Part shown: one piece after another, positions 5,004 to 46,848 of the stretch
How the letters are laid out: every line of letters starts with the position of its first letter
Position numbering within the stretch: position 1 is the first letter of the stretch
From: a virus
Taxonomy: Duplodnaviria; Heunggongvirae; Uroviricota; Caudoviricetes
Length of the DNA: 64,000 bases
Virus record (IMG/VR): IMGVR_UViG_2721755676_000001
Strand: one strand, 5' to 3'
Notes under the pieces: generated by a model
Seen by the model: the letters and a program-made list of their open reading frames with translations, nothing else
Told to the model about the DNA's origin: nothing
The model's database searches: none
Position numbers and translations under genes: made by a program

Positions 5004-5024
5004 TAAGTAACAAAAGGAATTTTT

Positions 5025-10007: not shown

Positions 10008-10008
10008 T

Positions 10009-19047: not shown

Positions 19048-22000
19048 TTGGACATGGAACAGTTCAAGAAGAAAAAATTACCGCTTCTTATTGCCGGTGC
19101 TGGTGGCAAGAAAAGTAAAAGCTCCAGCCGTACCCCGGTTGAAGCTGATGATACTGTCAATTCTCGTGCTATGGCAGCCATCCTCGACCTTCTTGGCGAG
19201 GGGGTTATCGGTGGCCTGGTAAATGGCGCAAAGTCGATCTTCATCGACGATTTACCGATCTTGAATGAAGATGGCTCTTCCAACTTCAGCGGTATTACAT
19301 GGGATTTTCGTGACGGCTCACAAGACCAGACGCCAATGGCTGGTTTTGATTTTGTTGAAACGCCTAAGTCCGTAAATATTCAGCTTAAAAAAACACACGA
19401 CGTTACGGTTTCAATCGATAACGATGAAGCTGATCGCGTTCGTGTCATCATGAAATTCCCCTCTTTACGTAGCGTTGATAAAAGCTCTGGCGATACAAAT
19501 GGCACTACGGTGAAGTACAAATTCCAGATCGCCAACGCAGACGCAACATTTTCTGATGTAGTGGCAGAAGGTGAGAAAAGCGTTGATATCACGCTAACGG
19601 CAAAGAAAACCGGCGTGTATTACCGTAGCTATGAGCTGAAACTGCCTAAGCCTGGTCGTGCATACAAGGTTAGGGTGATTCGTCTTACAGATGATAATAG
19701 TAGCCAGTACCTCTACAACGACACATGGGTTGATTCCATCGGTGAGATTGTCGACACGCCAATGAACTACCCTAACTCTGCTCTTGTTGGCTTGAAGGTC
19801 AATTCAGAGCAGTTTGGTAGCACAATGCCTTCCCGTTCGTATTTGGTGCGCGGTATCAAAATCCGAGTACCGTCAAACTACAACGAATACACCAATACTT
19901 ATGTCGGCGTATGGGACGGTACTTTTAAGCTGTTGTCTTCTTCAAACCCTGCGTGGATTCTCTACGATTTGCTTACCAATACTCGGTATGGTCTTGGGCA
20001 ATTTGTGTCGGAATCCATGATTGACCTCGGCCAGCTCTACCAGATTGGTCGATATTGTGACGAGGAGGTCGATGATGGCTTTGGGGGTAAAGAGAAACGT
20101 TTTGCAATCAATACGCAGATCACTAGCCGACAGGATGCATACCGATTAATTCAGGATATTGCCGGTGCATTCCGCGGCATGGTGTTTTGGGCTGGTGGCA
20201 TGGTTAACATCATGCAGGATAGCCCATCAGATCCGGTAATGATGTTTACCAACTCCAACGTCAAAGATGGACTGTTTACCTATAAAGGTTCTGCGCGTAA
20301 AGATCGCCCATCCGTTGCGCTCGTAACCTACAACAACAAGGAGGACGGTTATAAGCAAAATATCGAGTACGTTGAAGATCAGGACGCAATGCGCCGTTAT
20401 GGTGAGCGTAAAACAGAAGTCGTAGCATTTGGATGTACAAGCCGAGGCCAGGCTCACCGAGTTGGTTTGTGGCTTTTGTATACCGCCAGAATGGAGTCGG
20501 ATGTAATTACATTTACTGCCGGCTTAGACGCCTCATTTCTGATGCCTGGTGAAACCGTTCTGATTCAGAACAAATATCGTGCAGGTAAACGTAACTCCGG
20601 TCGAATTGTGGAGTTTACCAAAAACAGCATCACTCTCGATGCGCCTGTGTCGTTAGCTAAAAGCGGCAGCTTTATTCGGATATTGAATCAGGAAGGCAAA
20701 ATCGTTGAACGCGATGTTCTTGAAACTGGCGAAAACATAACAAAGGTTACGTTTTCAAAAGCCCTGTCGTCAGCGGAAACGCCTGTTTTGAACGGTGTCT
20801 GGACAATTACAGAACCAGATCTCGAACCTATGCGCGTTCGCATCGTTAACATCGCACAGGGGGAAACGCCGGGTAGCTTTGACATCACCGCTGTTGAGAA
20901 CAATCCGTCTAAATATGAGGCAATCGACAATGGTGCAACGCTGATCCCGCAGAATACGACGGTATTGGACCCAACTTACTCCAAGCCATCTAATCTGCAA
21001 ATCACTGAAGGGACTTATCTCTCAAGCCCGGGCAACCTGTCAGTAAAACTGACTGCAACATGGGAAGGGAAGTCTCCAGAGTATTGGATCAGTTGGCGAC
21101 GTTCTGATGAAAACAATGTATCGAACTGGCAATCGGCGCGTGTAACCGAAGAGCAATACGAAATCGTTAATGTCGCGGAGAATGGACGCTACGACTTCCA
21201 GCTGTATGCGGTTTCATTCAACGGTAAAAAAACAGAGATTATCAGTACCGTTTATCAGGTGTTGGGCACAATGACACCGCCTGATGCCCCAACGTCATTA
21301 ACGGCCGTTGGAGACTATCGTAATGTGATACTGAATTGGGTTAATCCAGATTCGGTAGACCTTGATCACATTAATGTTTACGCATCCCAGACCAACAATC
21401 TGGATACGGCGAAACTGATCGCAGAGTCTGCAAGCACCACCTTTACACATGCTGGTCTTGGGGATAGCGAAACGTGGTATTACTGGGTTCGAGCATCGAA
21501 CAAGCGAGGTATGTTAAGCCCTCCGAACTCAAACTTGGGTACAGAGGCGACAACTCGCGATGTACTGTCGTTCCTGGCTGGCAAAATTACATCTTCCGAG
21601 CTTGGTCAGGCTCTGCTTGAGGACATCAACAGCAAAGCCTCTCAAGAAGCAGTTGACGAGTTAAATGAGCATATCAACCAGAGCGTCGAATCTTTAGAGG
21701 GGGCGGTAAACGACGTTAAGGAAGATATAGCTGAATTAGATAAGCAGTTCAGCGATAACCTCGCGGATTTTGAAATAAAATTCAACGAGCGTAGCGATGC
21801 TTTGGAGAACGCACAAACCGAGCTTAAAGGTGAGGTTTCGGCAACGATTGACAAGGTCAATGAAGCGTTTGAAAAAATTGATGCTACTGATGCTGCAATT
21901 GTTGAAATCGAAAACACCGTATCTGAACACGATAAAGCTCTCGCTAATACAGTCGAGGCAATAAAGGCTGCAAGAGATGAAGCGGCGGCTCTTATTGCTA

Positions 22001-23778
22001 AGGAAAGCGAGGCTCGTGTTGAAGGCGATGCTGCAAACGCTAAACAACTGGAAGTGTTGCAGTCAACGGTAGAGGAAAGCTCCGCTGCCGTTGAAGAAAT
22101 GAAAAAGACGGTTGCAGAGGTCGATCGTGCCAGTGCAGAACTGACTACGAACATTGAGGCGTTAGCCAAAACAAATATTGACCTGGCTCTTCGTCAAGAT
22201 GAAGACCAGCACAAGCAGATGGTCAATAACGCGAAGATCGCAACAACACAGAAAACCTTTGCTGATGATATGTCTGCAATGGCCACGAAGGTTGAGGAAA
22301 TTCGCGTAGAAATTGGCGAAGACATTAAGGCCAGTATTCTGGAAGAGTCCACCGCTCGTGCCGATGGCGATGAAGCGTTGGCAAAGCGTGTCACTCAGCT
22401 GCAATCTAAGTTTGAAGGAGATATCAGCGCGGCGATTAGTACAGAGCAGGAGGCTCGTACATCTGCCGATGAAGCTCTGACGACACAAATCACTCAGCTT
22501 GAGTCGAAAGTAAGCAACGATATCGTCGCAGCTATTAAGGAAGAGCAAGAAGCCCGAGCAACGGAAGATTCGGCTCTGGCAAGCCAGATCACCCAACTTC
22601 AGGCAAAGGTTGATGATGATATTTCTGCTGCAATACGTAGTGAGCAGGAGGCCCGAGCAAGCGGGGACTCTGCGTTAGCCAAACAAATAAACCAGCTTCA
22701 GTCAAAGGTTGACGGTGATATATCCGCTGCCATCACTCAGGAGCAGGAGGCCAGAGCAAGTGCTGACCAGGCGCTCTCACGAGAAATTAACAGCCTGCGA
22801 GCACAAACCGGAACTGATATTGCCGCAGCGGTTGCTGTAGAGACAAAAGCAAGGACTGATGCCGATAGTGCATTGTCTACCCAGATTACGTCTCTTACAG
22901 CAAAAGCTAATGATCTCAAGGCGTCTCTTGCCAGAGAAACAACGGCTCGTGCAGATGGTGATACCGCTTTAACAAAAGAGGTTTCAAGTTTAAAAGCACA
23001 GACAGCGAAAGATATTAGTGCGGCCGTTGCAGTTGAAACGCAGGCTCGAACTGATGCTGACTCGGCGTTGTCGTCTCAGATCACCAAGCTGACCTCTCAA
23101 TACAAAGAGGATATTAAAGCGGCTGTAGCAACCGAAACGAAAACACGTACAGAGCAAGATGCTGCATTGGCGACTCAAATCACAAACTTAGAGTCTCAAA
23201 CGGCAGCCAACATTTCCGCGGCGGTCACAACTGAAACGACAGCGAGAACGCAGGCAGATAATGCTCTGAGTGGGCGAATCGATACTCTGAAAGCAGAGGT
23301 GAATGGAAATACCGCGACAATTCAACAGCAGGCAACAGCTATTGCTGATACCAACAAAAAAGTGTCAACCGCGTGGACGTTGAAAATGGAGACTTCAACG
23401 AGCGGAGGGCAGAAGTATGTTGCCGGTATTGCGCTTGGTATTGACACCACTGGGCTATCTCAGTTTTTGGTTCAGGCGGACAGGTTTGGTTTGGTCAACT
23501 CTGTTAACGGGAAGATCACAACGCCATTTGTTATCGAAAACAGTATCGCCTATATGAATGGAGCGTATATCAAGGATGGCACAATCACCAATGCAAAAGT
23601 AGGCGATCTGCAATCTACCAATTTTGTTAGCGGTAGATCTGGATGGCGATTCGGCAAAAATGGAACGCTTGAGATCAACGGTAATAGCGGCGGCAATGGG
23701 CGATTGGTTATAAATGGTCAGCGGATTGACGTTTATGACGATAACAACGTCTTACGAGTAAGAATTGGCCGTCTGTGA
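19048..23778 (+). CDS. central tail fibre / host specificity protein (lambda gpJ-like)
   Basis: Recognisable gpJ-type blocks (YPNSALVGLKVNSEQFGS, VPSNYN, GVWDGTFK, FGCTSRGQAHRVGLWL, KYVAGIALGIDT..LSQFLV) recalled from lambda J. Confidence 0.9.
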   Translation: MDMEQFKKKKLPLLIAGAGGKKSKSSSRTPVEADDTVNSRAMAAILDLLGEGVIGGLVNGAKSIFIDDLPILNEDGSSNFSGITWDFRDGSQDQTPMAGFDFVETPKSVNIQLKKTHDVTVSIDNDEADRVRVIMKFPSLRSVDKSSGDTNGTTVKYKFQIANADATFSDVVAEGEKSVDITLTAKKTGVYYRSYELKLPKPGRAYKVRVIRLTDDNSSQYLYNDTWVDSIGEIVDTPMNYPNSALVGLKVNSEQFGSTMPSRSYLVRGIKIRVPSNYNEYTNTYVGVWDGTFKLLSSSNPAWILYDLLTNTRYGLGQFVSESMIDLGQLYQIGRYCDEEVDDGFGGKEKRFAINTQITSRQDAYRLIQDIAGAFRGMVFWAGGMVNIMQDSPSDPVMMFTNSNVKDGLFTYKGSARKDRPSVALVTYNNKEDGYKQNIEYVEDQDAMRRYGERKTEVVAFGCTSRGQAHRVGLWLLYTARMESDVITFTAGLDASFLMPGETVLIQNKYRAGKRNSGRIVEFTKNSITLDAPVSLAKSGSFIRILNQEGKIVERDVLETGENITKVTFSKALSSAETPVLNGVWTITEPDLEPMRVRIVNIAQGETPGSFDITAVENNPSKYEAIDNGATLIPQNTTVLDPTYSKPSNLQITEGTYLSSPGNLSVKLTATWEGKSPEYWISWRRSDENNVSNWQSARVTEEQYEIVNVAENGRYDFQLYAVSFNGKKTEIISTVYQVLGTMTPPDAPTSLTAVGDYRNVILNWVNPDSVDLDHINVYASQTNNLDTAKLIAESASTTFTHAGLGDSETWYYWVRASNKRGMLSPPNSNLGTEATTRDVLSFLAGKITSSELGQALLEDINSKASQEAVDELNEHINQSVESLEGAVNDVKEDIAELDKQFSDNLADFEIKFNERSDALENAQTELKGEVSATIDKVNEAFEKIDATDAAIVEIENTVSEHDKALANTVEAIKAARDEAAALIAKESEARVEGDAANAKQLEVLQSTVEESSAAVEEMKKTVAEVDRASAELTTNIEALAKTNIDLALRQDEDQHKQMVNNAKIATTQKTFADDMSAMATKVEEIRVEIGEDIKASILEESTARADGDEALAKRVTQLQSKFEGDISAAISTEQEARTSADEALTTQITQLESKVSNDIVAAIKEEQEARATEDSALASQITQLQAKVDDDISAAIRSEQEARASGDSALAKQINQLQSKVDGDISAAITQEQEARASADQALSREINSLRAQTGTDIAAAVAVETKARTDADSALSTQITSLTAKANDLKASLARETTARADGDTALTKEVSSLKAQTAKDISAAVAVETQARTDADSALSSQITKLTSQYKEDIKAAVATETKTRTEQDAALATQITNLESQTAANISAAVTTETTARTQADNALSGRIDTLKAEVNGNTATIQQQATAIADTNKKVSTAWTLKMETSTSGGQKYVAGIALGIDTTGLSQFLVQADRFGLVNSVNGKITTPFVIENSIAYMNGAYIKDGTITNAKVGDLQSTNFVSGRSGWRFGKNGTLEINGNSGGNGRLVINGQRIDVYDDNNVLRVRIGRL
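22342..23305 (+). repeat. ~10 tandem 99-bp (33-aa) coding repeats inside the gpJ-like gene (unit ~ EQEARAsADsALstQItqLqsKvddDISAAI)
   Basis: Periodic protein sequence read from translation. Confidence 0.8.
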
Positions 23779-23871: not shown

Positions 23872-26800
23872 ATGTGGTACAGGGAAGGTACTATCACATT
23901 TACACAGGGCAGCAATACTCTGGTTGGGGCAGGGACAGCCTGGAACGTAACAGCTAATGGTGTGTTGCCGGGGATGATCGTCATTGGCCCCGACAATAAG
24001 CTGTATGAGATCAAGCGCGTAACCAGTGATACGAACATTGTTCTCTCAGAACCTTATACCGGCGAAACTCAGTCTGAAGTTCCGTGCCGAATCATTACGA
24101 CCTATGAAGGCGACTTAACACAGTTTAGCGCGCGCTTTACTGCGCTAATGTCGCGTATGTCGGCTGATTCCAAGTCCATACGCAGTTGGTTGACTGCGCT
24201 GGATGAGGTGACAATCGAGCGTGAAGACGGTACAGAAGTGACCGTTAAGCCGCTAATGCAGATCGCCAACGAGCACAACGAAAACGTTGAGTGGTATAAA
24301 AATAACACTGACGCGATTGATGCTGCTGGCGACAAAGCTCGTGAGGCGGCGGCCAGTGCTGCCGCAGCAGCAAAAAGCGCCAATGCCGCTGGAGAAAAAG
24401 CCTCTCAAGCGTCTCAAAGTGCATCCGCTGCGGCATCCTCACAAAGTGCCGCAAGTGCGAGTGCAACTGCTGCGAAAAAATCTGAAACGAATGCTGCAGC
24501 GTCACAAAAATCTGCAGCCACTTCTGCATCCACCGCGACCACGAAGGCGTCAGAAGCTGCCACCTCAGCCCGGGATGCGGCGGCCTCAAAAGAGGCAGCG
24601 AAATCATCAGAAACGAACGCATCCTCAAGCGCCAGTAGTGCCGCTTCCTCGGCAACGGCGGCAGGAAATTCCGCGAAGGCGGCAAAAACGTCCGAGACGA
24701 ACGCCAGGTCTTCTGAAACGGCAGCGGGACAGAGCGCCTCAGCTGCGGCAGGCTCAAAAACAGCGGCTGCGTCGTCTGCCAGTGCCGCGTCAACAAGTGC
24801 CGGGCAGGCCTCAGCCAGTGCCACCGCCGCCGGAAAATCGGCAGAAAGTGCCGCATCGTCTGCTTCAACAGCCACAACGAAGGCTGGCGAAGCCACTGAA
24901 CAGGCCAGCGCAGCAGCGAGGTCTGCTTCCGCAGCGAAGACATCCGAAACGAACGCGAAAGCGTCGGAAACCAGCGCAGAATCCTCAAAAACGGCTGCCG
25001 CATCGTCCGCCAGTTCGGCGGCGTCATCGGCATCATCGGCGTCTGCTTCAAAAGATGAGGCGACCAGACAGGCGTCAGCAGCGAAGGGCAGCGCCACGAC
25101 GGCATCCACGAAAGCAACAGAGGCGGCAGGCAGTGCGACGGCAGCATCTCAGAGCAAAACTGCTGCTGAATCCGCTGCGACTCGTGCGGAAGCTGCTGCT
25201 GATCGTGCTGAAGAGATTGCCGGTGCAGTTGCGATGGAAGACGCAAGCCTTACAACTAAAGGTGTTGTGAAACTTAGCAGTGCTGTCGACAGCACCAGTG
25301 AATCGCTGGCCGCAACGCCAAAAGCAGTTAAAGCAGCCAATGACAATGCGAATAGCAGGGTGCCATCTAACCGAAAAGTTAACGGTAAAGCACTGACTGC
25401 GGATATCAAATTAACGCCGAAAGATATTGGTACTTTAAATTCAGTAACGATGTCTTTCTCTGGCGGGGCAGGGTGGTTCAAACTGGCTACGGTTACCATG
25501 CCACAAGCGAGTTCCATCGTTTACATCGCATTGATTGGTGGCGCTGGTTACAACGTCGGCTCCCCACATCAGGCAGGCATTTCAGAACTGGTTCTACGAG
25601 CAGGCAATGGAAACCCCAAAGGGATTACAGGTGCTTTGTGGAAGCGTACAGCTGTCGGATTAACGAATTTCGCCTGGATCAACACATCCGGCGATACATA
25701 TGATATTTACGTTGAGATTGGCAATTATGCGACTCGTGTAAATATCCATTGGGATTGTACTGCAAATGCGACAGTTTCTATTTATACCTCGCCAACATAT
25801 TCAGCGAGTAAGCCTTCCAGCGTTACCGATGGTGTTGTTTATACGATGTATAGCACACATCAGAAACCGACGCCGTTAGATATTGGAGCACTGCCAACAA
25901 CCGGAGGAACAGTTTCAGGTCCGTTGTCTGTTACAGGTGGATTAACTGGTTCATTGAATGGTAATGCAAGTACAGCCACGAAATTGCAGACGGCAAGATC
26001 TATCGGTGGAGTTGTTTTCGACGGTTCTGCAAATATTAACCTTCCAGGTGTAAACACTACGGGTAATCAGAACACCACTGGTAATGCTGCAACTGCTACA
26101 AAACTTCAGACTGCAAGAAAAATATCCGGTGTTCCATTTGATGGTTCTACTGATATCACTTTAACCGCTGCGCATGTTGCCGCTTTCGCAAGAAGGGCAA
26201 CAGGGTCATATGCGGATGCTGATGGTGGCGTGCCGTGGAATGCTGAATCTGGTGCTTACAATGTAACTAGAACAGGCGACAGTTATATTCTTGCCAACTT
26301 TTATACCGGTGTAGGTAGTTGCCGGACCCTGCAGATGAAGGCGCATTACAGAAATGGAGGTCTGTTCTACCGTTCCTCAAGAGATGGCTATGGTTTTGAA
26401 AGTGGTTGGGAGCAGGTTTACACGACTGGATTTATGCCTCAGCCGGCTGATATAAACGCGCCAACCGCTGCCGCTGGATGGTTAAATAGTGGTAACGGAA
26501 CGGCATTTACGACTGCTCAATTTATAACTTGGCTAAATAATCAGGGGGCATTTACAAACAAACATTGGATCGCACGGTGCTCATGGGCTTACGCCAACAA
26601 TAATTATATAGACGACACTGGTTGCGGTAGGATCGATCTATCTGGTTCCGTGATTGAGGTGTTTAGTAATAAGGCAACAAGCCACTACACTATTCGTGTT
26701 ACAACGACAACAACATCGGGTCATGGTGGTGTTAACAATGCGGAATTTATTTATGTGTACAATGGAAGTGATTATGCACCAGGCTGGCGTCGTTCTTATA

Positions 26801-28170
26801 ACACTAGAAACAAACCAACAGCTTCTGATGTAGGAGCATTATCGCTTTCTGGAGGAGCGTTAACTGGCGGATTAACTGCTGCTGGCGAGATTATTTCAAA
26901 ATCGGCGAATGGTCTGCGCATTGCCTACGGAAACTACGGATTCTTTATCCGAAACGATGGTTCAAGCACATACTTCATGTTGACCGATTCGGGTAACAGC
27001 CTGGGAACCTATAATAGTTTAAGGCCGCTTATCATTAACAATGCCAATGGTGCTGTTAGGATCGGTAATGGACTCAATGTTACTGGCGGCATCAATGGTA
27101 GTTTGAACGGTAATGCTTCAACAGCTACGAAGTTGCAAACAGCGAGAAACATCAATGGTGTTAAGTTTGATGGTTCAGGCGATATCAACATTAATACATT
27201 GGTATCTCGTGGCCGAGTTACGGCGTTAAGCGGCTCTACTCAAGGCACTGCTGGCATTCAAATGTATGAGGCGTACAACAATAGCTACCCGACCACGTAT
27301 GGCAACGTATTGCACATGAAAGGTGCGAGTGCTGCTGGTGAGGGCGAGTTGCTTATTGGCTGGAGTGGTACGAGCGGTGCACATGCGCCAGTTTTCATTC
27401 GCTCACGAAGAGATAACACAGGTGCAGCATGGTCAGCGTGGGCGCAGGTATATACCGCTAAGGATTCAATCCCTGGTGTGAATACAACTGGTAATCAGAA
27501 CACTACTGGTAATGCCGCAACCGCCACAAAATTGCAGACAGCAAGGAAAATTGCTGGTGTGGCGTTTGATGGCTCTGCCGATATAACTTTGACTGCGGCT
27601 AACCTTAATGCTTACACGAAAACAGAGGTAGCAAACCTTCTAAGCTCCTATGCAAGCAGATCATCACTGACAGGCTATAGTGGCAACCTGGATATTGTTG
27701 CTGAAACACTGGTTGTCAAATCAGGCGGTAGTGGAGGGTTTGCTATATGGGATATTGGCACAACTACTAGCGGTGCCAATATGTACATTGATCCAAACCC
27801 AGGTATCAATACAGTTTGGCGTTCAACGTCTTCAAGGCGCTATAAAAAGGATATTGAAACATTACAAGATCGATATGCTGATGAACTTTTGTCATTAAGA
27901 CCTGTTTGGTATCGTTCAATTTGTCGAGGTGACCGAAAGGATTGGGGGTATTACGGCCTTATTGCTGAAGAGGTTGGTGAGATTGCCCCGCAATATGTCC
28001 ATTGGCGTGAACCAACAAATAATGATTCTCCAGAAGATATTTCCTCAAATGGTATGGTCGCTGAAGGAGTGATGTATGAGCGTTTGGTTGTACCACTCAT
28101 TCATCATATTCAGCAATTGACCAAAAGGGTTGAGGAGCTTGAAACGAAGTTAAATTCACCTAAAGAATAA
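23872..28170 (+). CDS. side tail fibre protein (Stf-like) with C-terminal intramolecular chaperone (peptidase S74-like) domain
   Basis: Long Ala/Ser/Thr-rich segment (ASEAATSARDAAASKEAAKSSETNASSSA...) as in lambdoid Stf; repeated NTTGNQNTTGNAATATKLQTARKI modules; C-terminal SSRRYKKDIETL..GYYGLIAEEV; AAGGAG RBS. Confidence 0.85.
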   Translation: MWYREGTITFTQGSNTLVGAGTAWNVTANGVLPGMIVIGPDNKLYEIKRVTSDTNIVLSEPYTGETQSEVPCRIITTYEGDLTQFSARFTALMSRMSADSKSIRSWLTALDEVTIEREDGTEVTVKPLMQIANEHNENVEWYKNNTDAIDAAGDKAREAAASAAAAAKSANAAGEKASQASQSASAAASSQSAASASATAAKKSETNAAASQKSAATSASTATTKASEAATSARDAAASKEAAKSSETNASSSASSAASSATAAGNSAKAAKTSETNARSSETAAGQSASAAAGSKTAAASSASAASTSAGQASASATAAGKSAESAASSASTATTKAGEATEQASAAARSASAAKTSETNAKASETSAESSKTAAASSASSAASSASSASASKDEATRQASAAKGSATTASTKATEAAGSATAASQSKTAAESAATRAEAAADRAEEIAGAVAMEDASLTTKGVVKLSSAVDSTSESLAATPKAVKAANDNANSRVPSNRKVNGKALTADIKLTPKDIGTLNSVTMSFSGGAGWFKLATVTMPQASSIVYIALIGGAGYNVGSPHQAGISELVLRAGNGNPKGITGALWKRTAVGLTNFAWINTSGDTYDIYVEIGNYATRVNIHWDCTANATVSIYTSPTYSASKPSSVTDGVVYTMYSTHQKPTPLDIGALPTTGGTVSGPLSVTGGLTGSLNGNASTATKLQTARSIGGVVFDGSANINLPGVNTTGNQNTTGNAATATKLQTARKISGVPFDGSTDITLTAAHVAAFARRATGSYADADGGVPWNAESGAYNVTRTGDSYILANFYTGVGSCRTLQMKAHYRNGGLFYRSSRDGYGFESGWEQVYTTGFMPQPADINAPTAAAGWLNSGNGTAFTTAQFITWLNNQGAFTNKHWIARCSWAYANNNYIDDTGCGRIDLSGSVIEVFSNKATSHYTIRVTTTTTSGHGGVNNAEFIYVYNGSDYAPGWRRSYNTRNKPTASDVGALSLSGGALTGGLTAAGEIISKSANGLRIAYGNYGFFIRNDGSSTYFMLTDSGNSLGTYNSLRPLIINNANGAVRIGNGLNVTGGINGSLNGNASTATKLQTARNINGVKFDGSGDININTLVSRGRVTALSGSTQGTAGIQMYEAYNNSYPTTYGNVLHMKGASAAGEGELLIGWSGTSGAHAPVFIRSRRDNTGAAWSAWAQVYTAKDSIPGVNTTGNQNTTGNAATATKLQTARKIAGVAFDGSADITLTAANLNAYTKTEVANLLSSYASRSSLTGYSGNLDIVAETLVVKSGGSGGFAIWDIGTTTSGANMYIDPNPGINTVWRSTSSRRYKKDIETLQDRYADELLSLRPVWYRSICRGDRKDWGYYGLIAEEVGEIAPQYVHWREPTNNDSPEDISSNGMVAEGVMYERLVVPLIHHIQQLTKRVEELETKLNSPKE

Positions 28171-28182
28171 ACAACTTCAATC

Positions 28183-28205
28183 GGGGCTGGAGCTAAACCA
28201 GCCCC
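28183..28205 (+). other. stem-loop GGGGCTGG-AGCTAAA-CCAGCCCC after tail fibre gene (no T-run)
   Basis: Read directly. Confidence 0.3.
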
Positions 28206-28230
28206 TGCTTAAAAGTATAAGGATATATTT

Positions 28231-28485
28231 ATGAGCTATGGTGCACAGGTTTGGTCGCCATCAAGACAGGAGATGGTCAATGCGTTGGCCCCTGTTTATT
28301 ACCTCGATTATTTTACTCCCTCTGGTTCAGGAAGTAGAACATATGAGGTTGAGGCGGGATTGGGAATCGACTATTACATAATGGACGTAACCAATGGAAA
28401 GTACACAAGTCTTACGGTTTCTGGAAATACCATTTCGTGGTCTGGAGCTAGTGGTAATTTAAACATATTGGTTTTTCAAAAATAA
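28231..28485 (+). CDS. hypothetical protein (AT-rich cargo gene)
   Basis: ORF with AAGGA RBS; visibly lower GC than flanking structural genes. Confidence 0.5.
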   Translation: MSYGAQVWSPSRQEMVNALAPVYYLDYFTPSGSGSRTYEVEAGLGIDYYIMDVTNGKYTSLTVSGNTISWSGASGNLNILVFQK

Positions 28486-29093
28486 TGTACGGAAGCAAGA
28501 TATATCGATCTGACGGGAAGGTCTGGATGTCTCCTTCTTTGTCTCCTATCGTTTTTCAGAGAAAGCAGGTTGTTTCTTTGTCCGGCGGGACAGAGTTTAA
28601 CACCAAAATATCTCCAGATCGTTCACCGATTATTTTTGTTGCCTATTCGAAAGCTGTTTCATTAATAGCCAACAGAATAGTGCGTAACAACCAGGTGATT
28701 TACAGTTTCGGAGGTCGGGGTAGCGACTCTAGTGCCACGATATACGTATTTTCGAAAGGTATAGCCAAAAAAGAAACTTGGGGCATGAGTTTTTTCAATG
28801 CACAAGGGGGGGAAATCTATAATACGGCAAATATCCCACTTTCATTTACCTTTCTTAATAATACGGAGTGGAACAGCTCTGGAGGGCATGTTTTTGATTA
28901 CCCTCCAGCGATAATCCCAACATATGCGAATGTGTTCGCTGTTCCAGTACCGGGCGGAGCCATGACAATGGTTTATGGATATGCGGCGTATGGAAATACT
29001 GTTAGCTCGATATTCGTAAACCAACTTAATGGCGGCCATAGTTTTAGCGTAAATGGCAGAGTACCGGTAATAAATAGAAATCTGTATAACTGA
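28485..29093 (+). CDS. hypothetical protein (AT-rich cargo gene)
   Basis: ORF start overlaps upstream stop (TAATG). Confidence 0.5.
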   Translation: MYGSKIYRSDGKVWMSPSLSPIVFQRKQVVSLSGGTEFNTKISPDRSPIIFVAYSKAVSLIANRIVRNNQVIYSFGGRGSDSSATIYVFSKGIAKKETWGMSFFNAQGGEIYNTANIPLSFTFLNNTEWNSSGGHVFDYPPAIIPTYANVFAVPVPGGAMTMVYGYAAYGNTVSSIFVNQLNGGHSFSVNGRVPVINRNLYN

Positions 29094-29100
29094 TGAGTAA

Positions 29101-29334
29101 ATGATGAAAAGATTATTTCTAACAATAGCTGTTGTTCTCTCTCTTACTGGCTGCCAGAAATTGCCGACACCTATATGTTATGGTGAAGCTATCATTGGTG
29201 GACAGGAGACAGTCATACCCATATATGCTGTTAAAAAAGTGAACGACTATACCTTATACAAAGCGGGTAGCATCTATAACTGGCGATGGGTTGGAGTAGG
29301 TGCTTTCTCATCAATCGGTTGCAATGCTGAATGA
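29101..29334 (+). CDS. small lipoprotein (candidate Cor/Llp-like superinfection-exclusion protein)
   Basis: Signal peptide with lipobox LSLTGC; 77 aa; located directly after tail fibre genes. Confidence 0.5.
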   Translation: MMKRLFLTIAVVLSLTGCQKLPTPICYGEAIIGGQETVIPIYAVKKVNDYTLYKAGSIYNWRWVGVGAFSSIGCNAE

Positions 29335-29354
29335 TAGGTAAGTACACACCTACA
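29334..29354 (+). promoter_or_regulatory. junction motif GATAGGTAAGTACACACCTAC
   Basis: Read directly; ~50 nt upstream of lysis cassette. Confidence 0.35.
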
Positions 29355-29403
29355 ACAAAAGGGTGAAATGTGATATAAATCCGCCATCCCGATTTGACTT
29401 TTC

Positions 29404-29739
29404 ATGGAGGAAAACATGTCGAACGAGATGGCGGGCGTTACAACAGAGCAAGTTGAGCGTATTGCCGCGATCGTTGCTCGGGAGGTTGTTGGCAAATTAG
29501 GTAAAGAGCTACGTGAAGAAATTGGCCAGGAGGTCAATGATCAGCTGAAAACCTACTTTGGTGATATGACCCCGGCGCAACATAGTATTCAACACTCCAA
29601 TCTGGACAAACTCCTTAACCGGTTAGATTCCATCTCAAGTGGGTTCTTTGGCGGCATTGTTTCTAAAATAACGTCGTTCATTATTACCGCACTGCTTTTG
29701 GGGTTAGCCGCGTATGGCGTAAAAAGTGGACTGCAATAA
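29404..29739 (+). CDS. membrane protein, putative holin (single C-terminal TM helix)
   Basis: GGAGG RBS; hydrophobic ITSFIITALLLGLAAYGV; first gene of lysis-like cassette; assignment by position. Confidence 0.4.
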   Translation: MEENMSNEMAGVTTEQVERIAAIVAREVVGKLGKELREEIGQEVNDQLKTYFGDMTPAQHSIQHSNLDKLLNRLDSISSGFFGGIVSKITSFIITALLLGLAAYGVKSGLQ

Positions 29740-29752
29740 CAGGAGATCAAGG

Positions 29753-30445
29753 ATGAAGACTCCGAGAGGCATTCGTAATAATAACCCCGGTAATCTTGAT
29801 AAAGGATCACCGTGGCAAGGTCTGGTTGCGAATCCAGACGAACCGCGCTTTTGCACGTTTAAAGACCCTGTTTGGGGGATTCGTGCGCTGGCGGTGACTC
29901 TAATTACCTACCACGATAAACGTCGCGCAAAAGACGGCTCAAGTATCGATACCATTCGTGAAGTTATTGAACGCTGGGCACCGCCGAATGAAAACAATAC
30001 TGACGCCTACATTAATGAGGTGTCTAAAGCCGTTGGTGTAACCGCAGACATGATCATCGATCTGCATGATTACGACATCCTTCGACCTTTGGTTGAGGCA
30101 ATCATTCGCCACGAGAATGGCCGAGGCCCGCTAAAAACGCTGAACACCTGGTATGCGGCAGAAGTTATTGAGGAAGGTCTGCGTCGAGCTGGCGTTGTTA
30201 AGCCGGTGAAAACCGTGAAGGCTGTTCCTGTAACTAAAGAAACCGCAGGCGCAACTGTTACAGCAGGTATTGGTCTGGCGCAGCTGGCCGATGTTATGCC
30301 GCAGGTTTCCGCTGCTATGGATAAAGCACAAGGTCATATCTCTAGCGGGGATACAGTACGCATCATCTTCGGTATTGCCACTATTGTTGTGGCAGGATTC
30401 ATTGCCTGGTCGCAGGTAAGAAAACACCAGAAAGGGATGGTCTAA
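29753..30445 (+). CDS. putative endolysin / cell-wall-active protein with C-terminal membrane anchor (family not recognised)
   Basis: ATG 29753 with CAGGAG RBS; conserved-looking N-terminal GIRNNNPGNL block; C-terminal TM IIFGIATIVVAGFIAW; sits between holin-like and spanin genes. Confidence 0.4.
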   Translation: MKTPRGIRNNNPGNLDKGSPWQGLVANPDEPRFCTFKDPVWGIRALAVTLITYHDKRRAKDGSSIDTIREVIERWAPPNENNTDAYINEVSKAVGVTADMIIDLHDYDILRPLVEAIIRHENGRGPLKTLNTWYAAEVIEEGLRRAGVVKPVKTVKAVPVTKETAGATVTAGIGLAQLADVMPQVSAAMDKAQGHISSGDTVRIIFGIATIVVAGFIAWSQVRKHQKGMV

Positions 30446-30446
30446 T

Positions 30447-30698
30447 ATGCTAGGCAGCCTGATGACAAAGCTAAAAGTTGCTTTGATTACGCTGGCTGCC
30501 GTTCTTTTCGTTCTGGTCGGCGCTTACACGATGGGCGGAAATGCGGCGCGACGAGCAATGGAAGAGAAGGCAAAACAGGAAGACAGGAAACGACTTCAAA
30601 GCACAGTGGATGTCAAAAATGAAACGGTTAATGAAGTGCGGCAAAAAGATGCCTCTGGTGTTCATCGCGAGCTGTTTGATAAATGGGTGCGTGATTAA
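30447..30698 (+). CDS. i-spanin (Rz-like), N-terminal TM plus charged helical periplasmic part
   Basis: N-terminal TM VALITLAAVLFVLVGAY followed by charged region; o-spanin-like lipoprotein ORF overlaps in another frame. Confidence 0.6.
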   Translation: MLGSLMTKLKVALITLAAVLFVLVGAYTMGGNAARRAMEEKAKQEDRKRLQSTVDVKNETVNEVRQKDASGVHRELFDKWVRD

Positions 30699-30846
30699 GA
30701 CGCAGGCTCCAGGCGTGCTATTCTGCGATGCTGCAAATCCTATCTATGTGAGTAGAGAGGATTTTATGACTGAGGAAACGGAGCGACAGTTGCTTATCCA
30801 CAATACGATAGGTGAAAGGCTGTGTGAGTGGGGGCACCTGAACTGA
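30619..30846 (+). CDS. o-spanin (Rz1-like lipoprotein), overlapped architecture
   Basis: Starts inside i-spanin in the +1 frame and extends beyond it; MKRLMKCGKKMPLVFIASCLINGC has signal peptide and lipobox-like NGC; start codon uncertain (30610/30619/30631). Confidence 0.45.
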   Translation: MKRLMKCGKKMPLVFIASCLINGCVIKTQAPGVLFCDAANPIYVSREDFMTEETERQLLIHNTIGERLCEWGHLN

Positions 30847-31070
30847 GTCGATGATTGATGAGTGGTCTCAGTTTACCTTTTATCCTAAAGATGGCATCTT
30901 CACTCATATACACGCCTGTTCACTCAAGCTCATGTTGAATCATTTAGTAATTTGATGTAGATTTATTAGGCATCCACGTAAGTGGGCACATACAGGCTAC
31001 GCATCCTCGTAGCCTTCAACCCCGAGAGGGGTGCCGCAATGACACTTGTGTTAACGGCTAAGGTGGATAT

Positions 31071-31490
31071 ATGCTAAATTATCATGACAATACGCGTTCT
31101 ATGCAGACGATCCGCACCAATACTGCGGTCATCGACAGCTTTCCTATGCGTATTCACAACAGTGAAGACGCAGTAGAAGTGCGACGTATGTTGTGCCGTG
31201 AATCAGCTAACCGCCAGCACTTCATCGTCACTTTTAAGAGCGATGTGGCGCGTGCCGAAAAGATCTCTAATTCTACGTCACTGGTTAAACCGTTGGCCGA
31301 GGTTGTCGCTAACGGTAAACGAACCTCTTTTGTTTTAGATGTTGCTGAACAATATCCTGACTTGAAGTGTTTAGATCGTGATATTTCTTCACGAATCAAA
31401 CAAGTTGTAGAGTCTTTTATGAAGAAATTCTGTAAAATCGATGATATGGAACCATCAACGGCACAGAATACTTCATGGCACCATCTCTAA
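31071..31490 (+). CDS. hypothetical protein (first gene of two-gene cargo operon)
   Basis: AAGGTGGA RBS; preceded by 220-bp AT-rich non-coding region. Confidence 0.5.
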   Translation: MLNYHDNTRSMQTIRTNTAVIDSFPMRIHNSEDAVEVRRMLCRESANRQHFIVTFKSDVARAEKISNSTSLVKPLAEVVANGKRTSFVLDVAEQYPDLKCLDRDISSRIKQVVESFMKKFCKIDDMEPSTAQNTSWHHL

Positions 31491-32248
31491 TTGGTCAGGC
31501 GAACAGATTAATCCCTGAAATAGAAGACTACAGCAAGGTCTTGTCTGAAATGCCGAGAGCGACGAGAATTATCGCTCTCGGTGAGTTCTATTTTATCTCC
31601 CGAGGTTTCGATCTAATTCGATTTACCGAATACGAGCTTGTTGATTCGGCCTATGAACGCTGTATTGTTGGCGAGTGTCTTGAGTCATGTGATCCTGATT
31701 ACCAAGAGCAGGAAGTTAAGCGACTCAAACGTGCTGGTTACACACCTCTTGAGATAGGAGCAGAAATTGAATCCTACAAGTTGCATGTGGGGCAGCCAGT
31801 CCAAACAGTCTTCCGCGTGGCCTACTGCGAGTTTCCAATCAAGGATAAATCTGGAGTAAAAGTCAGCGCCAAGCAGATTAGAGGGGTTTTTACTCATGCT
31901 GATTATATGGGATTAGGCATCGCAAGTTTTGCTTACCTTTATCTCGTAGATAAGTATCAGTACTTGGTTTGCGATACGTTACAGACGGTAAAAGGCGCAA
32001 CTCTTTGGGCTGTGAGTATGCGCAAACATGGACTGGTCGAAATTTACGATACGAAGAACGAAAATTTTATAGAGGAATTGGGTGAGGATGCCTGTGGCGT
32101 AAGTGGTTTTATTCCGTGGGATATCGGTAAGTCTGACGGAGGCCAGATGCGAAGACGTGAAGAGTGGGGGACTAATAAAATCAATCTCACCCCAGGTGCT
32201 TGTACTCATATAGTGAACATTCTGACTAAACGATCTATGAATCAATAA
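31475..32248 (+). CDS. hypothetical protein, possible GNAT-like fold
   Basis: Overlaps upstream gene by 16 nt; segment IRGVFTHADYMGLGIASFAYLYLV weakly GNAT-like; followed by intrinsic terminator. Confidence 0.45.
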   Translation: MAPSLIGQANRLIPEIEDYSKVLSEMPRATRIIALGEFYFISRGFDLIRFTEYELVDSAYERCIVGECLESCDPDYQEQEVKRLKRAGYTPLEIGAEIESYKLHVGQPVQTVFRVAYCEFPIKDKSGVKVSAKQIRGVFTHADYMGLGIASFAYLYLVDKYQYLVCDTLQTVKGATLWAVSMRKHGLVEIYDTKNENFIEELGEDACGVSGFIPWDIGKSDGGQMRRREEWGTNKINLTPGACTHIVNILTKRSMNQ

Positions 32249-42298: not shown

Positions 42299-42525
42299 CC
42301 AATACAACGATAAGATCATTACGGTTAATCGTCGTTCATGTGCACAATGACTGGTCGAAAGGTAGTGATCTTACCGTTGTGGTGGATTCGCAGACTGATG
42401 CGATAGCTTTCTTGGATGTTAGGGAAATGCGGCCGCAAATCTTCCCTTTCGCGAGCGGTGATCGTCCGTAGTCCTAATTGGCTGCACCGTATGCCGGAGA
42501 TTCAGTACCGGCCACCACAACGGCC

Positions 42526-42609
42526 GGAGAGTAGGGAGCATGGTGCTCAAGCGGTCTTGAAAACCGTCCCATTGCGCAAGCGATGATGGTTCGATTCCAT
42601 TACTCTCCG
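42526..42609 (+). tRNA. tRNA-Ser (anticodon TGA), long variable arm
   Basis: Acceptor GGAGAGT/ACTCTCC, anticodon loop CTTGAAA, long variable arm, T-loop TTCGATT, discriminator G, CCA encoded. Confidence 0.7.
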
Positions 42610-42789
42610 CCAGACACAGCGTTGAGCGGTTTGGCCTTTTAATCACCCAGATTAAGACTCCGCTAACATAAACCAGACCGCTCAACGCTGTGATAGACAA
42701 TTACGGCAGACGTTCTTAACCATAGCTTGCTAACATCCTAGCAACACTTTTTTCAGCGCAAAATTCAAAGGGGCTTCGGCCCCTTTTTG

Positions 42790-43686
42790 TTAATGATTAT
42801 CTAGGTATGCTATTAACTCATTTTTAATGATAAGTGAATATTCTAAAATCTCACCTAGTAAATATTCTGCTTTTTTAAAATGCCAACCCATATAGCCTAA
42901 TTTTTCTGAAGGTCCTTCTAACAACATTATAATATCGCTGTCTTTCTCTTTGGCAATGTATTGTCTTATTTCTATCTCAAAATTATTTCTTGTCTTCCCA
43001 CTTATTGATGATTCATCCAAAACTTTAGTTATAAACTTTTCCGTGTCGATGAACTTTCCTGCATTATGCACAATTGTATGTCTTAGCAGCTCAATTAAAG
43101 TGATCTCGAAACGATAGTTTTTACCTATCTTGTTATTTATTTCTACGTCTCTAAAATTGGGTAACTTTCTTCTAAATACTTTCAGGATTTTTTTTGGTGC
43201 TTTATTATTTCTTTTTATCGCATTGTAGTAGGTTTCCATGTCTCCATTTTGTTCGATCTGAACATTTTTAAATTCACTAGGTTGCCAAAAATGGTCATGA
43301 ATACTCACTGTATGGGCATATATTTTCTTAATATAGTCTTCAAACAATTCATATGCTTCGGTTATAACCCATTGATACTGTTTATTTTTTAACACTTCAC
43401 ATAACTTTATCTTCTCTGAAAGATCTGTTCTAGTATGCCCAATTCCAAATGTTGAACCTGTATATGGATTTGAGCATGTATGGTTTGCTAACGTTGTCCC
43501 GCATGTTAATGGGAAAGTATTATTAGCATCTAGATTTTGTACGTTTTCAAGTGTATGCTTAAATCGCTTTATGTTGTCTTTCGTTGTAACATTTATATGA
43601 CCTAACAAGTCACAACGTAAAATTATTTCATTTCTTAAATCAGTGAATATTTTTTCGACAAAAGAACCTGATGGGTTTTCAATCAT
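42790..43686 (-). CDS. hypothetical AT-rich protein with HEPN-like R-x4-H motif (candidate abortive-infection/defence protein)
   Basis: 298-aa minus-strand ORF, Lys/Asn/Ile-rich, AGAGG RBS; motif RHTIVH; directly flanks tRNA cluster. Confidence 0.5.
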   Translation of the reverse strand: MIENPSGSFVEKIFTDLRNEIILRCDLLGHINVTTKDNIKRFKHTLENVQNLDANNTFPLTCGTTLANHTCSNPYTGSTFGIGHTRTDLSEKIKLCEVLKNKQYQWVITEAYELFEDYIKKIYAHTVSIHDHFWQPSEFKNVQIEQNGDMETYYNAIKRNNKAPKKILKVFRRKLPNFRDVEINNKIGKNYRFEITLIELLRHTIVHNAGKFIDTEKFITKVLDESSISGKTRNNFEIEIRQYIAKEKDSDIIMLLEGPSEKLGYMGWHFKKAEYLLGEILEYSLIIKNELIAYLDNH

Positions 43687-43861
43687 CTAAACCTCTACGA
43701 AAATCTTACCTATAAGACAGTCCTTAATGTAATCTGTTTTCTCCACTACTTCAAATTACCTCACAATCTATTGATAGGTGACTACCTACTTACATACAAA
43801 GTTGATTTATAGTATAGTCCCTCTGTTGCGTATTAGTATTTTAAAAGGCATCTGTTAAGTT

Positions 43862-45113: not shown

Positions 45114-46217
45114 ATGAAAAATAGCTTTGACAGAGCACGCGCTGCGGAGAACACCTCAAAAGAGGCGATAGAGTATCTCGAAAGAGCATCTCAAATGCAG
45201 GCCGTTATGATCTCCCAGGTCAGCAATGACATGAGATTCTCGGACGCATTCATGTTATTCACTCGCTTATCTCTGCTGATAACCAGACGTCGGCCAGAGA
45301 TCGCTGTTCATTGTATTTTGATACATGTTTTGCCGCACATTGCCGATGTAAAAGTAAGTGACATTAATAGGTTCATGGTGAACCAACTGGTCAACCCACT
45401 AATACTGGATGGCAAAATTGTTATGGGCCGCCGCGTTTTCTCTCTGATGAAGCAGTTCCTTAGCTGGTGCGCCTTCCAGGGGATGATAGACGTGTCACCG
45501 TTAAACGATATGTCACTAAACAAAGTTGCCGGTGGCGCAAAGCCCACACCTCGCGAGCGGAAGCTGACCGACGCAGAGGTATGGGTGTTCTGGAATATAT
45601 GGGACTACTTCAATGTGTGCGCTGGTACAAAATGGGCGGCCAGGCTGTGTCTTGTATCCGCAAGACGACCTGACGAAGTACTGCGGGCTAAAAAAAGTGA
45701 GTTCAATCTTAAGCGTGGGGTTTGGAATCAAGGCAAGAGGAACAAATCTGCCCGTGAGCATTCTCTGCCTTTAAGCTCATTAATGCGCACTTGTATTGAA
45801 GAGTTGTTCGAATATGGTAAAGACAGCCAGTGGCTCGTGCCTTCGAATAAAAAAATCGGGAAAGACCTTCCTATGTCTAAAGTGGCAATAGCCCAGGCAT
45901 TACGTCGTATTCTGGAACGACCAGAACTGATGGAGCTTGAGCCATTTACACCCCGAGACTTGCGCCGTACTGCGCGTAGTTACTTCCCAGCATTAGGCAT
46001 AAGCCAGGAGGTATCACGCAAAATCATGAACCACAGTCTTGAGGGGATAGATCGAGTCTACGACCGGCACGATTATATGGACGAGATGCGAGACGCCTTA
46101 GAAAGTTTCTCGACGTACATCGCATCAATCGTAGAGCAACCGGATTTAGACGAAATTGACCACAAATTCAAGGGAGATCGTCTATCAACAGAGCTTATTC
46201 GTGTAAATTTTTCATAG
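45114..46217 (+). CDS. tyrosine recombinase / integrase family protein
   Basis: C-terminal catalytic-region pattern TPRDLRRTARS...IMNHSLEGIDRVYDRHDY (R, H, Y positions); upstream Arg ARRPDEV; GGTGA RBS. Confidence 0.65.
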   Translation: MKNSFDRARAAENTSKEAIEYLERASQMQAVMISQVSNDMRFSDAFMLFTRLSLLITRRRPEIAVHCILIHVLPHIADVKVSDINRFMVNQLVNPLILDGKIVMGRRVFSLMKQFLSWCAFQGMIDVSPLNDMSLNKVAGGAKPTPRERKLTDAEVWVFWNIWDYFNVCAGTKWAARLCLVSARRPDEVLRAKKSEFNLKRGVWNQGKRNKSAREHSLPLSSLMRTCIEELFEYGKDSQWLVPSNKKIGKDLPMSKVAIAQALRRILERPELMELEPFTPRDLRRTARSYFPALGISQEVSRKIMNHSLEGIDRVYDRHDYMDEMRDALESFSTYIASIVEQPDLDEIDHKFKGDRLSTELIRVNFS

Positions 46218-46598
46218 AGACTTTATGGCCTCAACAACCTTTTGTGATGCGCCTTTCTCTTTACCGAATCGCTCGTTATATGCAGCAAGAACCTGTTTTT
46301 CGTCCTCGTTAAGAGGAGCGGTGCCTTCTTTGTATAAAAATGCTGCGAGTTCAGGTTGGCGTTCTTCCAGCACCATCATCATAAGACGACTTGGCTCAAT
46401 ACCCAGCGCCAGCGCCAACGGACGAACCTTATCGATAGGCAAAGGAATTTTGCCACTTTTAATTAAAGAAAGGTTGTTGGCATTTTTATAACCAATAAGT
46501 CTGGCTATTTGGGCCTGACTCATAGGTGAGGATTCAATCAGCCCTGCGATAAAAGCAGCATAGCGACTTTCTATAAATTCAATCTTGTTGTCAGACAT
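46212..46598 (-). CDS. XRE-family helix-turn-helix transcriptional regulator (putative repressor)
   Basis: HTH-like MSQAQIARLIGYKNANNLSLIKSGK; convergent with recombinase gene; AAAGG RBS. Confidence 0.7.
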   Translation of the reverse strand: MSDNKIEFIESRYAAFIAGLIESSPMSQAQIARLIGYKNANNLSLIKSGKIPLPIDKVRPLALALGIEPSRLMMMVLEERQPELAAFLYKEGTAPLNEDEKQVLAAYNERFGKEKGASQKVVEAIKSL

Positions 46599-46626
46599 TG
46601 TTACAACCTTTGCGCGTTCAATTCTC

Positions 46627-46640
46627 TCTGGTAAGTGCTT
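46627..46640. promoter_or_regulatory. perfect 14-bp palindrome GGTAAGTGCTTACC (candidate operator) upstream of the XRE regulator gene
   Basis: Read directly; 29 nt upstream of the regulator start codon; shares GTAAGT half-site with the genome-wide motif. Confidence 0.5.
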
Positions 46641-46848
46641 ACCGATATTACATCAAAGGTTAGGGTTGTAAAGCTATTATCATTTTTTCGATAGGCACTT
46701 AAAAGACCGGTTAAAGGCCATTGCACGGAGAAAAATTAGCCCAAAACAGGTAAGAAAATTAACTTGCATATGATATGAATGTATTCAGTATTGATATAAA
46801 TTTTAGTAGTATTCCTTACCATAGTATAAGTTAGAATGGATTGATTGA

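Follow-up and report, generated by a model that had tools for sequence, protein, structure and literature searches.

The analysed DNA, a 64,000-nucleotide stretch referred to below as the window, belongs to an SSU5-like phage-plasmid of Escherichia coli; about 60 E. coli plasmids of ~110 kb, pEcFELIX526.1 among them, match this region with 99.9% identity. Lambda-like tail genes are followed by the central tail fibre gene J, a side tail fibre gene, three small genes (g1, g2 and g3), the genes of holin, endolysin and Rz/Rz1, and then parA (Table 1). All three open reading frames that a first-pass annotation had placed between positions 28231 and 29334 are present on the plus strand, and they lie, as it had stated, between the gene of the large tail fibre and the lysis genes, whose annotation agrees with the records of the phages Cyrano and SSU5. 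The start codon of g2 overlaps the stop codon of g1 (TAATG), and a ribosome-binding site, AAGGA, stands 9 nt ahead of the ATG of g1. Between the stop codon of the tail fibre gene and g1 lies a GC-rich hairpin of the form GGGGCTGG-N7-CCAGCCCC. The 65-nt stretch containing it has a folding energy of -19.1 kcal/mol, with z = -3.2 relative to shuffled sequences; no T-run follows it on the 3' side, and the terminator scan did not call it. Promoter- and terminator-like sites were no commoner in our scan than in shuffled sequence, and the scan did not demonstrate a promoter belonging to g3 itself. A search of positions 26000-32000 against Rfam gave no match, and paralogues of the three genes were not found elsewhere in the window.

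Table 1. Features of the region from J to the lysis genes, in window coordinates
Feature	Position	Strand	Assignment or basis
J, central tail fibre / tip protein	19054..23778	+	Pfam; 1574 aa
Side tail fibre, 1432 aa	23872..28170	+	Pfam Gp34_trimer and Peptidase_S74
GC-rich 8-bp hairpin between tail fibre stop and g1	28183..28205	+	Folding
g1, 84 aa, all-beta	28231..28485	+	PHROG 557; homologue of N15/phi80 gp22 and T1 ST32
g2, 202 aa, all-beta	28485..29093	+	PHROG 425; homologue of N15/phi80 gp23 and T1 ST31 ('hand-like' protein)
g3 (cor), 77-aa lipoprotein	29101..29334	+	NCBIfam NF047972; PHROG 1119
Right-hand module boundary	29333..29335		Megablast similarity to Cyrano/SSU5 restarts
Lysis cassette: holin (from 29416), endolysin, Rz, embedded Rz1	29416..30846	+	PHROG 5093, 873, 1026, 1275

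The three genes had been described as visibly lower in GC than their surroundings. The dip is real but modest: their GC content is 41.8% against 46.5% for the window, which is the 8th percentile of windows of the same size (1104 nt, SD 3.4%) and about 1.4 SD under the mean. We therefore rejected the idea of a strongly AT-rich island. At codon third positions, GC is 0.35-0.40 in the three genes and 0.46 in J. The dip begins already within the 3'-terminal ~600 nt of the tail fibre gene, where GC is 42-44%, and the 3' end of this gene is part of the variable, lower-GC segment. A far stronger low-GC island, with 32% GC, lies elsewhere in the window at about 42.5-43.7 kb.

When positions 27800-30500 were used as a megablast query, matches restarted at query positions 1534-1536, within two bases of the g3 stop codon. 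To the right of this stop, the lysis genes are 99.6% identical to those of Escherichia phage Cyrano and 83% identical to those of Salmonella phage SSU5. On the left, the side fibre and the Cyrano tail fibre can be aligned as far as about residue 1266, beyond which they diverge. At the amino-acid level, identity to SSU5 is 59-76% for the three genes and 47% for the tail fibre, against 82-95% for the proteins of the lysis cassette and 91-95% for holin, endolysin and ParA; the three genes and the tail fibre are thus the most diverged genes in this comparison. Judged from sequence divergence, this pattern is that of an exchangeable, fast-evolving host-contact module, which would also account for the mild GC difference of the three genes.

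The last gene had been proposed to encode a Cor-like exclusion lipoprotein, and NCBIfam, PHROG, tblastn and the conserved cysteines all agree on this assignment. The g3 protein matches the NCBIfam equivalog NF047972 ('phage exclusion lipoprotein Cor') over residues 2-75 with 80.1 bits (cut-off 31, E 8.7e-23) and PHROG 1119 with an E value of 7.8e-30. It is about 41.6-43% identical to phi80 Cor (41.6% by tblastn). By the same method it is 47% identical to Cor of HK/mEp-type lambdoid phages and 58% identical to Cor of Stx phages, which are its closest relatives outside SSU5. The N-terminus, MMKRLFLTIAVVLSLTGC, has its hydrophobic maximum at residues 5-19, and the lipobox LTGC reported earlier is indeed found at residues 15-18, after the hydrophobic stretch; the Pfam model LPAM_1 recognizes the protein weakly (E 0.011, under its cut-off). 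A lipoprotein signal peptide with a lipobox, a cysteine at +1 and a small mature protein of ~60 aa are features of the Cor family that g3 shares. So are an additional pair of cysteines (intramolecular disulphide) and a core of GG / AG / WRWV type. Indeed, in an alignment with Cor of SSU5, an Stx phage, phi80 and JLBYU60, C18 (the lipidated residue), C26 and C74 are invariant, as are G33, G34, Y42, A55 and G56. By these sequence features g3 is a member of the Cor superinfection-exclusion family and a predicted outer-membrane lipoprotein. This identity is not new, as RefSeq already names the gene 'cor: phage exclusion lipoprotein Cor' in E. coli plasmids. In T1 and phi80, Cor is known to cause the exclusion of phages that depend on FhuA (PMC13164509). 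The earlier expectation of a small exclusion lipoprotein at such a position also held, since g3 adjoins host-recognition genes as Cor and Llp do in other phages. Sequence similarity does not place g3 in the T5 Llp family: a phmmer search against all PDB chains, Llp structures included (Llp-FhuA, 8A60), gave no match at E <= 1. Llp is reported to be just ~20% identical to Cor proteins (PMC9586334).

The two proteins encoded before Cor had been left unassigned, which proved incorrect: g1 belongs to PHROG 557 (E 2.4e-24) and g2 to PHROG 425 (E 6.4e-48), and they are homologues of phi80 gp22/gp23 and T1 ST32/ST31. The identity of g1 to phi80 gp22, T1 ST32, the Stx-phage protein, Cyrano_88 and tonijn gp17 is 24-35%. 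The pair also aligns with gp25/gp26 of JLBYU60 and with pairs in Stx phages, tonijn, Cyrano and PhiR41_1. Neither protein matched a Pfam or NCBIfam model, a comparison with all PDB chain sequences returned nothing meaningful, and PADLOC gave no match for g1, g2 or g3. No signal peptide, lipobox, membrane segment or hydrophobic segment was found in the sequences of g1 and g2. A single-sequence search retrieved 5 proteins homologous to g2, and an exhaustive search of representatives 27 clusters; the SSU5-type subfamily is therefore small.

Three subfamilies of the pair can be distinguished. The FhuA type, found in phi80, T1 and JLBYU60, combines proteins of 100 and 224-229 aa; the Stx/Cyrano/tonijn type combines 92-93 with 201-205 aa; and the SSU5/window type combines 84 with 202 aa. 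The SSU5/window pair is 16-19% (at most 27%) identical to the FhuA type and 21-29% identical to the Stx/Cyrano/tonijn type. By these identities, the window pair is a third, distinct subfamily of a known module.

Both proteins had been called beta-rich, and their AlphaFold2 (AF2) models are accordingly all-beta. The model of g1 (pLDDT 83.7) shows a beta sandwich of six strands that is extended at the N-terminus; no informative structural neighbour was found for it. In a profile comparison with hhalign, the g1 family aligns onto the first ~100 residues of the g2 family (probability 78%, E 1.8e-5), and the predicted strands of g1 match those of g2 residues 1-91 one for one. Because of this family alignment and these matching strands, g1 looks like a paralogue of a putative docking domain of g2. 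A resemblance of the small protein to the receptor-binding domain of lambda J has been proposed in the literature, but it found no support at the profile level (hhalign probability 0.3%).

The architecture of the tail tip bears on the function of the pair. According to Pfam, the window J contains the domains FNIII-A_GpJ, Phage-tail_3 and Phage_Tail_Tip (PF09327), the last at residues 1422-1556 of 1574. The protein stops 18 aa past PF09327, and Pfam found no PF12421 receptor-binding domain in it. In lambda J, analysed for comparison, PF12421 lies at residues 1001-1132, beyond PF09327. The J proteins of Cyrano, phi80 and JLBYU60 likewise stop right after PF09327 and lack PF12421. The window J is 98% identical to that of Cyrano, the last 150 aa being identical, and its C-terminus is 37-40% identical to the C-termini of phi80 gp21 and JLBYU60 gp24. 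The window J thus has no built-in receptor-binding domain.

The three genes correspond to the 'cor cassette' (N15 gp22-gp23-cor) of the FhuA phages T1, HK022, N15, ES18 and phi80, which has been known since 2006 (Wietzorrek et al., as cited in PMC13164509). The window carries the three protein families of this cassette with their order and orientation unchanged; the order, a protein of ~85-100 aa, one of ~200-230 aa and then Cor, recurs in phi80, T1, JLBYU60 and SSU5. The J protein without a receptor-binding domain, its homologous C-terminus and the conservation of the Cor cysteines extend the resemblance. Three differences stand against it: at 84 + 202 aa the window pair falls short of the 100 + 224-229 aa of the FhuA type, the carrier is a ~110-kb phage-plasmid whose relatives can have an alternative pair at a second locus, and the three genes follow the side tail fibre gene instead of J. 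This position of the window cassette is unusual: the 4.3-kb side tail fibre gene separates J from g1, and the same is true of SSU5. The SSU5 genes SSU5_023, SSU5_024 and SSU5_025 are orthologues of the three window genes (68%, 75% and 57% identity for g1, g2 and g3, respectively), occupy the same position ahead of the holin gene, and are labelled outer membrane protein, membrane associated protein and Cor in RefSeq. Ahead of them SSU5 encodes a tail fibre adhesin in a gene of its own, whereas the window fibre instead has a Peptidase_S74 intramolecular chaperone domain (residues 1320-1376 in Pfam).

The position directly 3' of the tail fibre gene, in the same stretch of lower GC, raises the question whether g1 and g2 help to assemble the side tail fibre as chaperones or serve as its distal adhesins. 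Tail fibre assembly genes are usual at such a place, and SSU5 has its adhesin gene there too. However, the window fibre brings its own S74 chaperone domain, SSU5 has the pair in addition to a separate adhesin gene, the pair follows J and not the side fibre in phi80, T1 and JLBYU60, and in Cyrano it lies 55 kb from the fibre gene. A role as tail fibre chaperones was rejected for these reasons, and we regard a service of g1 and g2 to the side fibre in either form as very improbable.

The distribution of the pair among related elements was then compared with that of cor. Cyrano, which is identical to the plasmid pLF82, lacks all three genes at this site. It has a paralogous pair, CYRAN_88/89, about 55 kb away among non-structural genes. 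Conversely, pEcFELIX526.1, which is 99.9% identical to the window over positions 27800-29400, has no pair at this second locus, where just 141 nt are found. Among PLSDB plasmids, which are related to one another and were searched with megablast, a method that misses diverged alleles, 72 carry the three genes, 119 the second-locus pair, 185 either set and 6 both, while the J tip is present in 179. The mutual avoidance of the two sets is significant for any total up to 250 (Fisher p <1e-16). Nearly every element thus has one pair and rarely two (6 of 185 have both). This pattern fits a required part of the virion better than optional cargo, although it could partly reflect the shared ancestry of two lineages instead of a functional need. 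Of 5426 complete E. coli genomes, 67 contain the three genes, in every case on a plasmid. The pair and cor are themselves separable units, because T1 and JLBYU60 have the pair on the strand of J but cor on the opposite one, and because Cyrano, PhiR41_1, tonijn and the Stx phage phi367 have the pair without an adjacent cor (in phi367 cor is elsewhere).

Taken together, these data lead us to propose that the three genes probably form a host-recognition and exclusion module of the 'cor cassette' type in an SSU5-like siphovirus that persists as a plasmid, with a detachable receptor-binding pair at the tail tip and a matching exclusion factor, Cor. In this module g2 would probably be a receptor-binding protein capping J, and g1 probably a small accessory subunit of the same assembly. 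A role of g1 and g2 in the virion is favoured because J lacks a receptor-binding domain, the pair and cor are separable, neither protein has an export signal, and the two alternative pairs have a complementary distribution. The proposal agrees with the view of the locus next to gpJ as a receptor-binding locus in the BASEL paper (PMC8594841), in a 2025 modelling paper (PMC12309495) and in a 2026 preprint (bioRxiv 10.64898/2026.04.02.716166); the locus 3' of gpJ is described as a bona fide receptor-binding locus in Drexlerviridae, Dhillonvirus and Queuovirinae (PMC8594841).

All three genes could instead constitute a non-structural cassette for exclusion or lysogenic conversion, in which g1 and g2 help Cor to block or modify the receptor. 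The first-pass annotation pointed this way in speaking of a cargo cluster, and the KanT1 paper of 2026 suggests an exclusion-related role for gp22/gp23 proteins (PMC13164509). Several observations speak for such a cassette, and some of them directly against a role in the virion: the window genes lie 4.3 kb from J, Cyrano has the same J and nothing at this site, its own pair is surrounded by non-structural genes, in tonijn J and the pair are on different strands, and six plasmids have both sets. In addition, the pair adjoins cor in FhuA phages, database names for the pair proteins include 'outer membrane' and 'membrane associated', and the GC content of the three genes is somewhat under that of their surroundings. 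Yet it is not evident how g1 and g2, which lack a signal peptide, a lipobox and a membrane segment, would reach the envelope, several phages have the pair and no adjacent cor or a cor on the opposite strand, a J protein without a receptor-binding domain needs a separate one, nearly all related plasmids have one pair or the other, and PADLOC recognizes none of the proteins. As for the features of a moron or cargo region, the locus has no excess of promoters or terminators over shuffles, an upstream hairpin without a T-run and a GC content at the 8th percentile, and where Cyrano lacks the three genes a paralogous pair stands in. We consider a purely non-structural exclusion cassette distinctly unlikely. 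The term cargo is probably wrong for g1 and g2, given their conserved gp22/gp23 families, the missing export signal, the J protein without a receptor-binding domain and the nearly complementary distribution. Homology to a conserved structural role, which the annotation had named as evidence that would count against it, is largely what was found for these two genes, as recent work treats the gp22/gp23 families as a receptor-binding locus in siphoviruses of small size.

The favoured arrangement, a receptor-binding pair on J together with Cor, suggests the following sequence of events. The g1 and g2 proteins would be made in the cytoplasm late in infection and would be held at the distal tip of the J trimer by non-covalent contacts, docking through the g1-like N-terminal domain of g2. 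The C-terminal half of g2 would then bind the extracellular face of an outer-membrane beta-barrel and trigger DNA injection. Cor, by analogy with the T5 Llp-FhuA complex and with T1 and phi80 Cor, would follow the lipoprotein export route to the outer membrane and lodge in its inner leaflet. There it may bind the periplasmic side of the same receptor, making it unusable for the phage itself and for phages that share the receptor. Its action would protect the lysogen or infected cell and spare progeny from loss on debris.

No sequence relationship between T5 proteins and those of the window was detected, and pb5 of T5 is a much larger, unrelated protein. The logic proposed here by analogy is nevertheless that of T5, where the detachable receptor-binding protein pb5 caps a trimeric central fibre and the adjacent lipoprotein Llp blocks FhuA from the periplasmic side (PMC9586334). 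In phage Oekolampad (Bas18), a receptor-binding protein and the exclusion lipoprotein Rtp45 both act on LptDE (bioRxiv 10.1101/2025.07.07.663478; PDB 9rpt). The window proteins differ from this system in sequence (14% identity, no sequence-level match) and in the receptor, and Foldseek did not recover a match. A receptor-prediction preprint likewise treats the Oekolampad-type and window-type families as unrelated (bioRxiv 10.64898/2026.04.02.716166).

The receptor of the window phage may be FhuA, which we put forward tentatively and as a guess by analogy. Every characterised phage with the full gp22-gp23-cor order uses FhuA (PMC13164509). Moreover, the window and phi80 Cor proteins, at about 43% identity, are about as close as those of phi80 and T1, which both act on FhuA and are 38% identical. 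However, the 2026 preprint assigns proteins to the FhuA family at >30% identity with near-full coverage to FhuA-associated members (bioRxiv 10.64898/2026.04.02.716166), and g2 is just 16-18% identical to phi80 gp23, JLBYU60 gp26 and T1 ST31. Because Cor is close to phi80 Cor and the pair falls short of the 30% threshold, FhuA is a reasonable guess and no more. The same architecture could serve another outer-membrane protein, such as a different TonB-dependent transporter, BamA or a porin. This is suggested by the position of the window pair in a subfamily of its own, distant from both the FhuA type and the Stx/Cyrano/tonijn type, and by the Stx-phage origin of the closest Cor outside SSU5. Moreover, Stx phage 24B uses members of these protein families for BamA (PMC12309495), and Cor/Llp-like lipoproteins also occur in BtuB-targeting phages (PMC13164509). 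Against it stand the Cor distances and the uniform use of FhuA by the characterised phages with all three genes, and we find a receptor other than FhuA somewhat unlikely. As cited in PMC12312913, the sole published receptor of SSU5 is the LPS core, to which its side-fibre adhesin gp22 binds; binding of LPS core by the fibre is compatible with a protein as terminal receptor. Our literature search found no paper tying SSU5 to FhuA experimentally and none on the receptors of PhiR41_1.

The paralogy of g1 and the alternative pairs can be combined into a wider reading, which we regard as rather unlikely in its entirety. The SSU5-type pair would be a third subfamily of detachable J-tip modules, with g1 paralogous to the docking domain of g2, so that, for example, two copies of g1 and one of g2 would cap the J trimer and break its three-fold symmetry. 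Such a mixed cap, suggested by the predicted structures, is a testable idea and not a result. Escherichia SSU5-like phage-plasmids would then switch their terminal receptor through two alternative cassettes 55-60 kb apart, and just the cassette described here would bring its own exclusion lipoprotein.

Systems of this kind have already been described, and the interest of the present one lies mainly in the polymorphism of alternative cassettes and in the paralogy of g1 and g2. Two alternative cassettes beside an identical J tip are a natural system for deciding whether proteins of the gp22/gp23 type bind the receptor or assist exclusion. If our proposal of a receptor-binding pair with a matching Cor is right, the cassette decides which outer-membrane protein a widespread phage-plasmid uses for entry. 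Through Cor, it may also set the resistance of its carriers to other phages, and possibly to colicins or siderophore antibiotics. Should Cor be expressed from the plasmid prophage and act on FhuA, it would shield carriers against T1-, T5- and phi80-like phages, which would be relevant to phage therapy and to contamination of fermentations. If the reading with alternative cassettes is true as well, about 1% of E. coli strains would be resistant to phages that share the receptor.

The two genes preceding cor, the gene of the Cor-family superinfection-exclusion lipoprotein, are g1 and g2, homologues of gp22 and gp23 of N15 and phi80. We compared them over window positions 28231-28485 (g1) and 28485-28790 (g2). 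The g1 family aligned to the first ~100 residues of g2-family proteins with an hhalign probability of 78% (E 1.8e-5), the predicted strands of g1 match those of the N-terminal part of g2, and the N-terminal motif M-x-YG...G-x-P is common to both proteins. The g1 protein looks like a paralogue of the g2 docking domain. RefSeq starts g2 at an internal ATG at 28527, giving 188 aa, and the Shine-Dalgarno sequence is better there than at the alternative start at 28485, which gives 202 aa. Because the 14 residues upstream of the RefSeq start are kept in SSU5, and the motif they contain opens every homologue, the longer product of 202 aa, whose start is coupled to the stop codon of g1 (TAATG), is the more likely one. 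The cor gene is missing from the PLSDB gene tables for most plasmid records.

The hairpin upstream of g1 is stable, with a folding energy of -19.1 kcal/mol in its 65-nt context (z = -3.2). It has no T-run and is therefore not a canonical terminator. Within the tail fibre gene, a GC-rich stretch (24200-25300; up to 62%) codes for Ala/Ser/Thr-rich low-complexity repeats; long spurious ORFs arise from it in other reading frames as well as on the complementary strand. The lowest-GC island of the window, at about 42500-43700 (about 32% GC vs 46.5%), is far more atypical in GC than the cluster of g1, g2 and cor (the trio).

SSU5-like phage-plasmids that have no trio carry a paralogous pair of one small and one ~200-aa gene, without cor, at a second locus ~55 kb away, with a 189-aa gene on one side and a DUF4942 gene on the other. 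Among PLSDB plasmids, 72 carry the trio and 119 the second-locus pair, while only 6 carry both. Cyrano equals the E. coli LF82 plasmid pLF82 (NC_011917.1) in length (108,379 bp), and in the 899-bp segment tested the two sequences show 100% identity. One related plasmid (PLSDB, NZ_CP145681.1 37432-39871) has an IS2 element inside g2, near trio position 488. The second-locus pair is unmatched in this plasmid, which is possibly a defective phage-plasmid.

Coordinates of features in the window and in related genomes
Feature	Genome	Position	Strand	Remark
GC-rich hairpin, GGGGCTGG-N7-CCAGCCCC	window	28183-28205		between tail fibre stop and g1
ORFs of 139 and 257 aa	window	31071-32248	+	3' of lysis genes
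298-aa ORF	window	42790-43686	-	overlaps low-GC island
Second-locus pair	Cyrano (OV696614.1)	45934-46832
Second-locus pair	PhiR41_1	4714-5615
Second-locus site	pEcFELIX526.1	30026-30166		empty
cor	phi367	5986-6213		short-tailed Stx phage
gp22/gp23-type pair	phi367	9454-10355

The closest Cor outside the SSU5 type is that of phi367 (58%, tblastn). Its gene comes after the tail fibre and the tail fibre's adhesin, and the gp22/gp23-type pair adjoins lom, 3 kb beyond cor; the two are unlinked in this phage.

Downstream of the lysis genes, SSU5 and PhiR41_1 resemble the window in having two ORFs on the plus strand. In Cyrano and pEcFELIX526.1, a minus-strand GNAT-toxin/antitoxin pair occupies this position. 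This site is a further variable slot.
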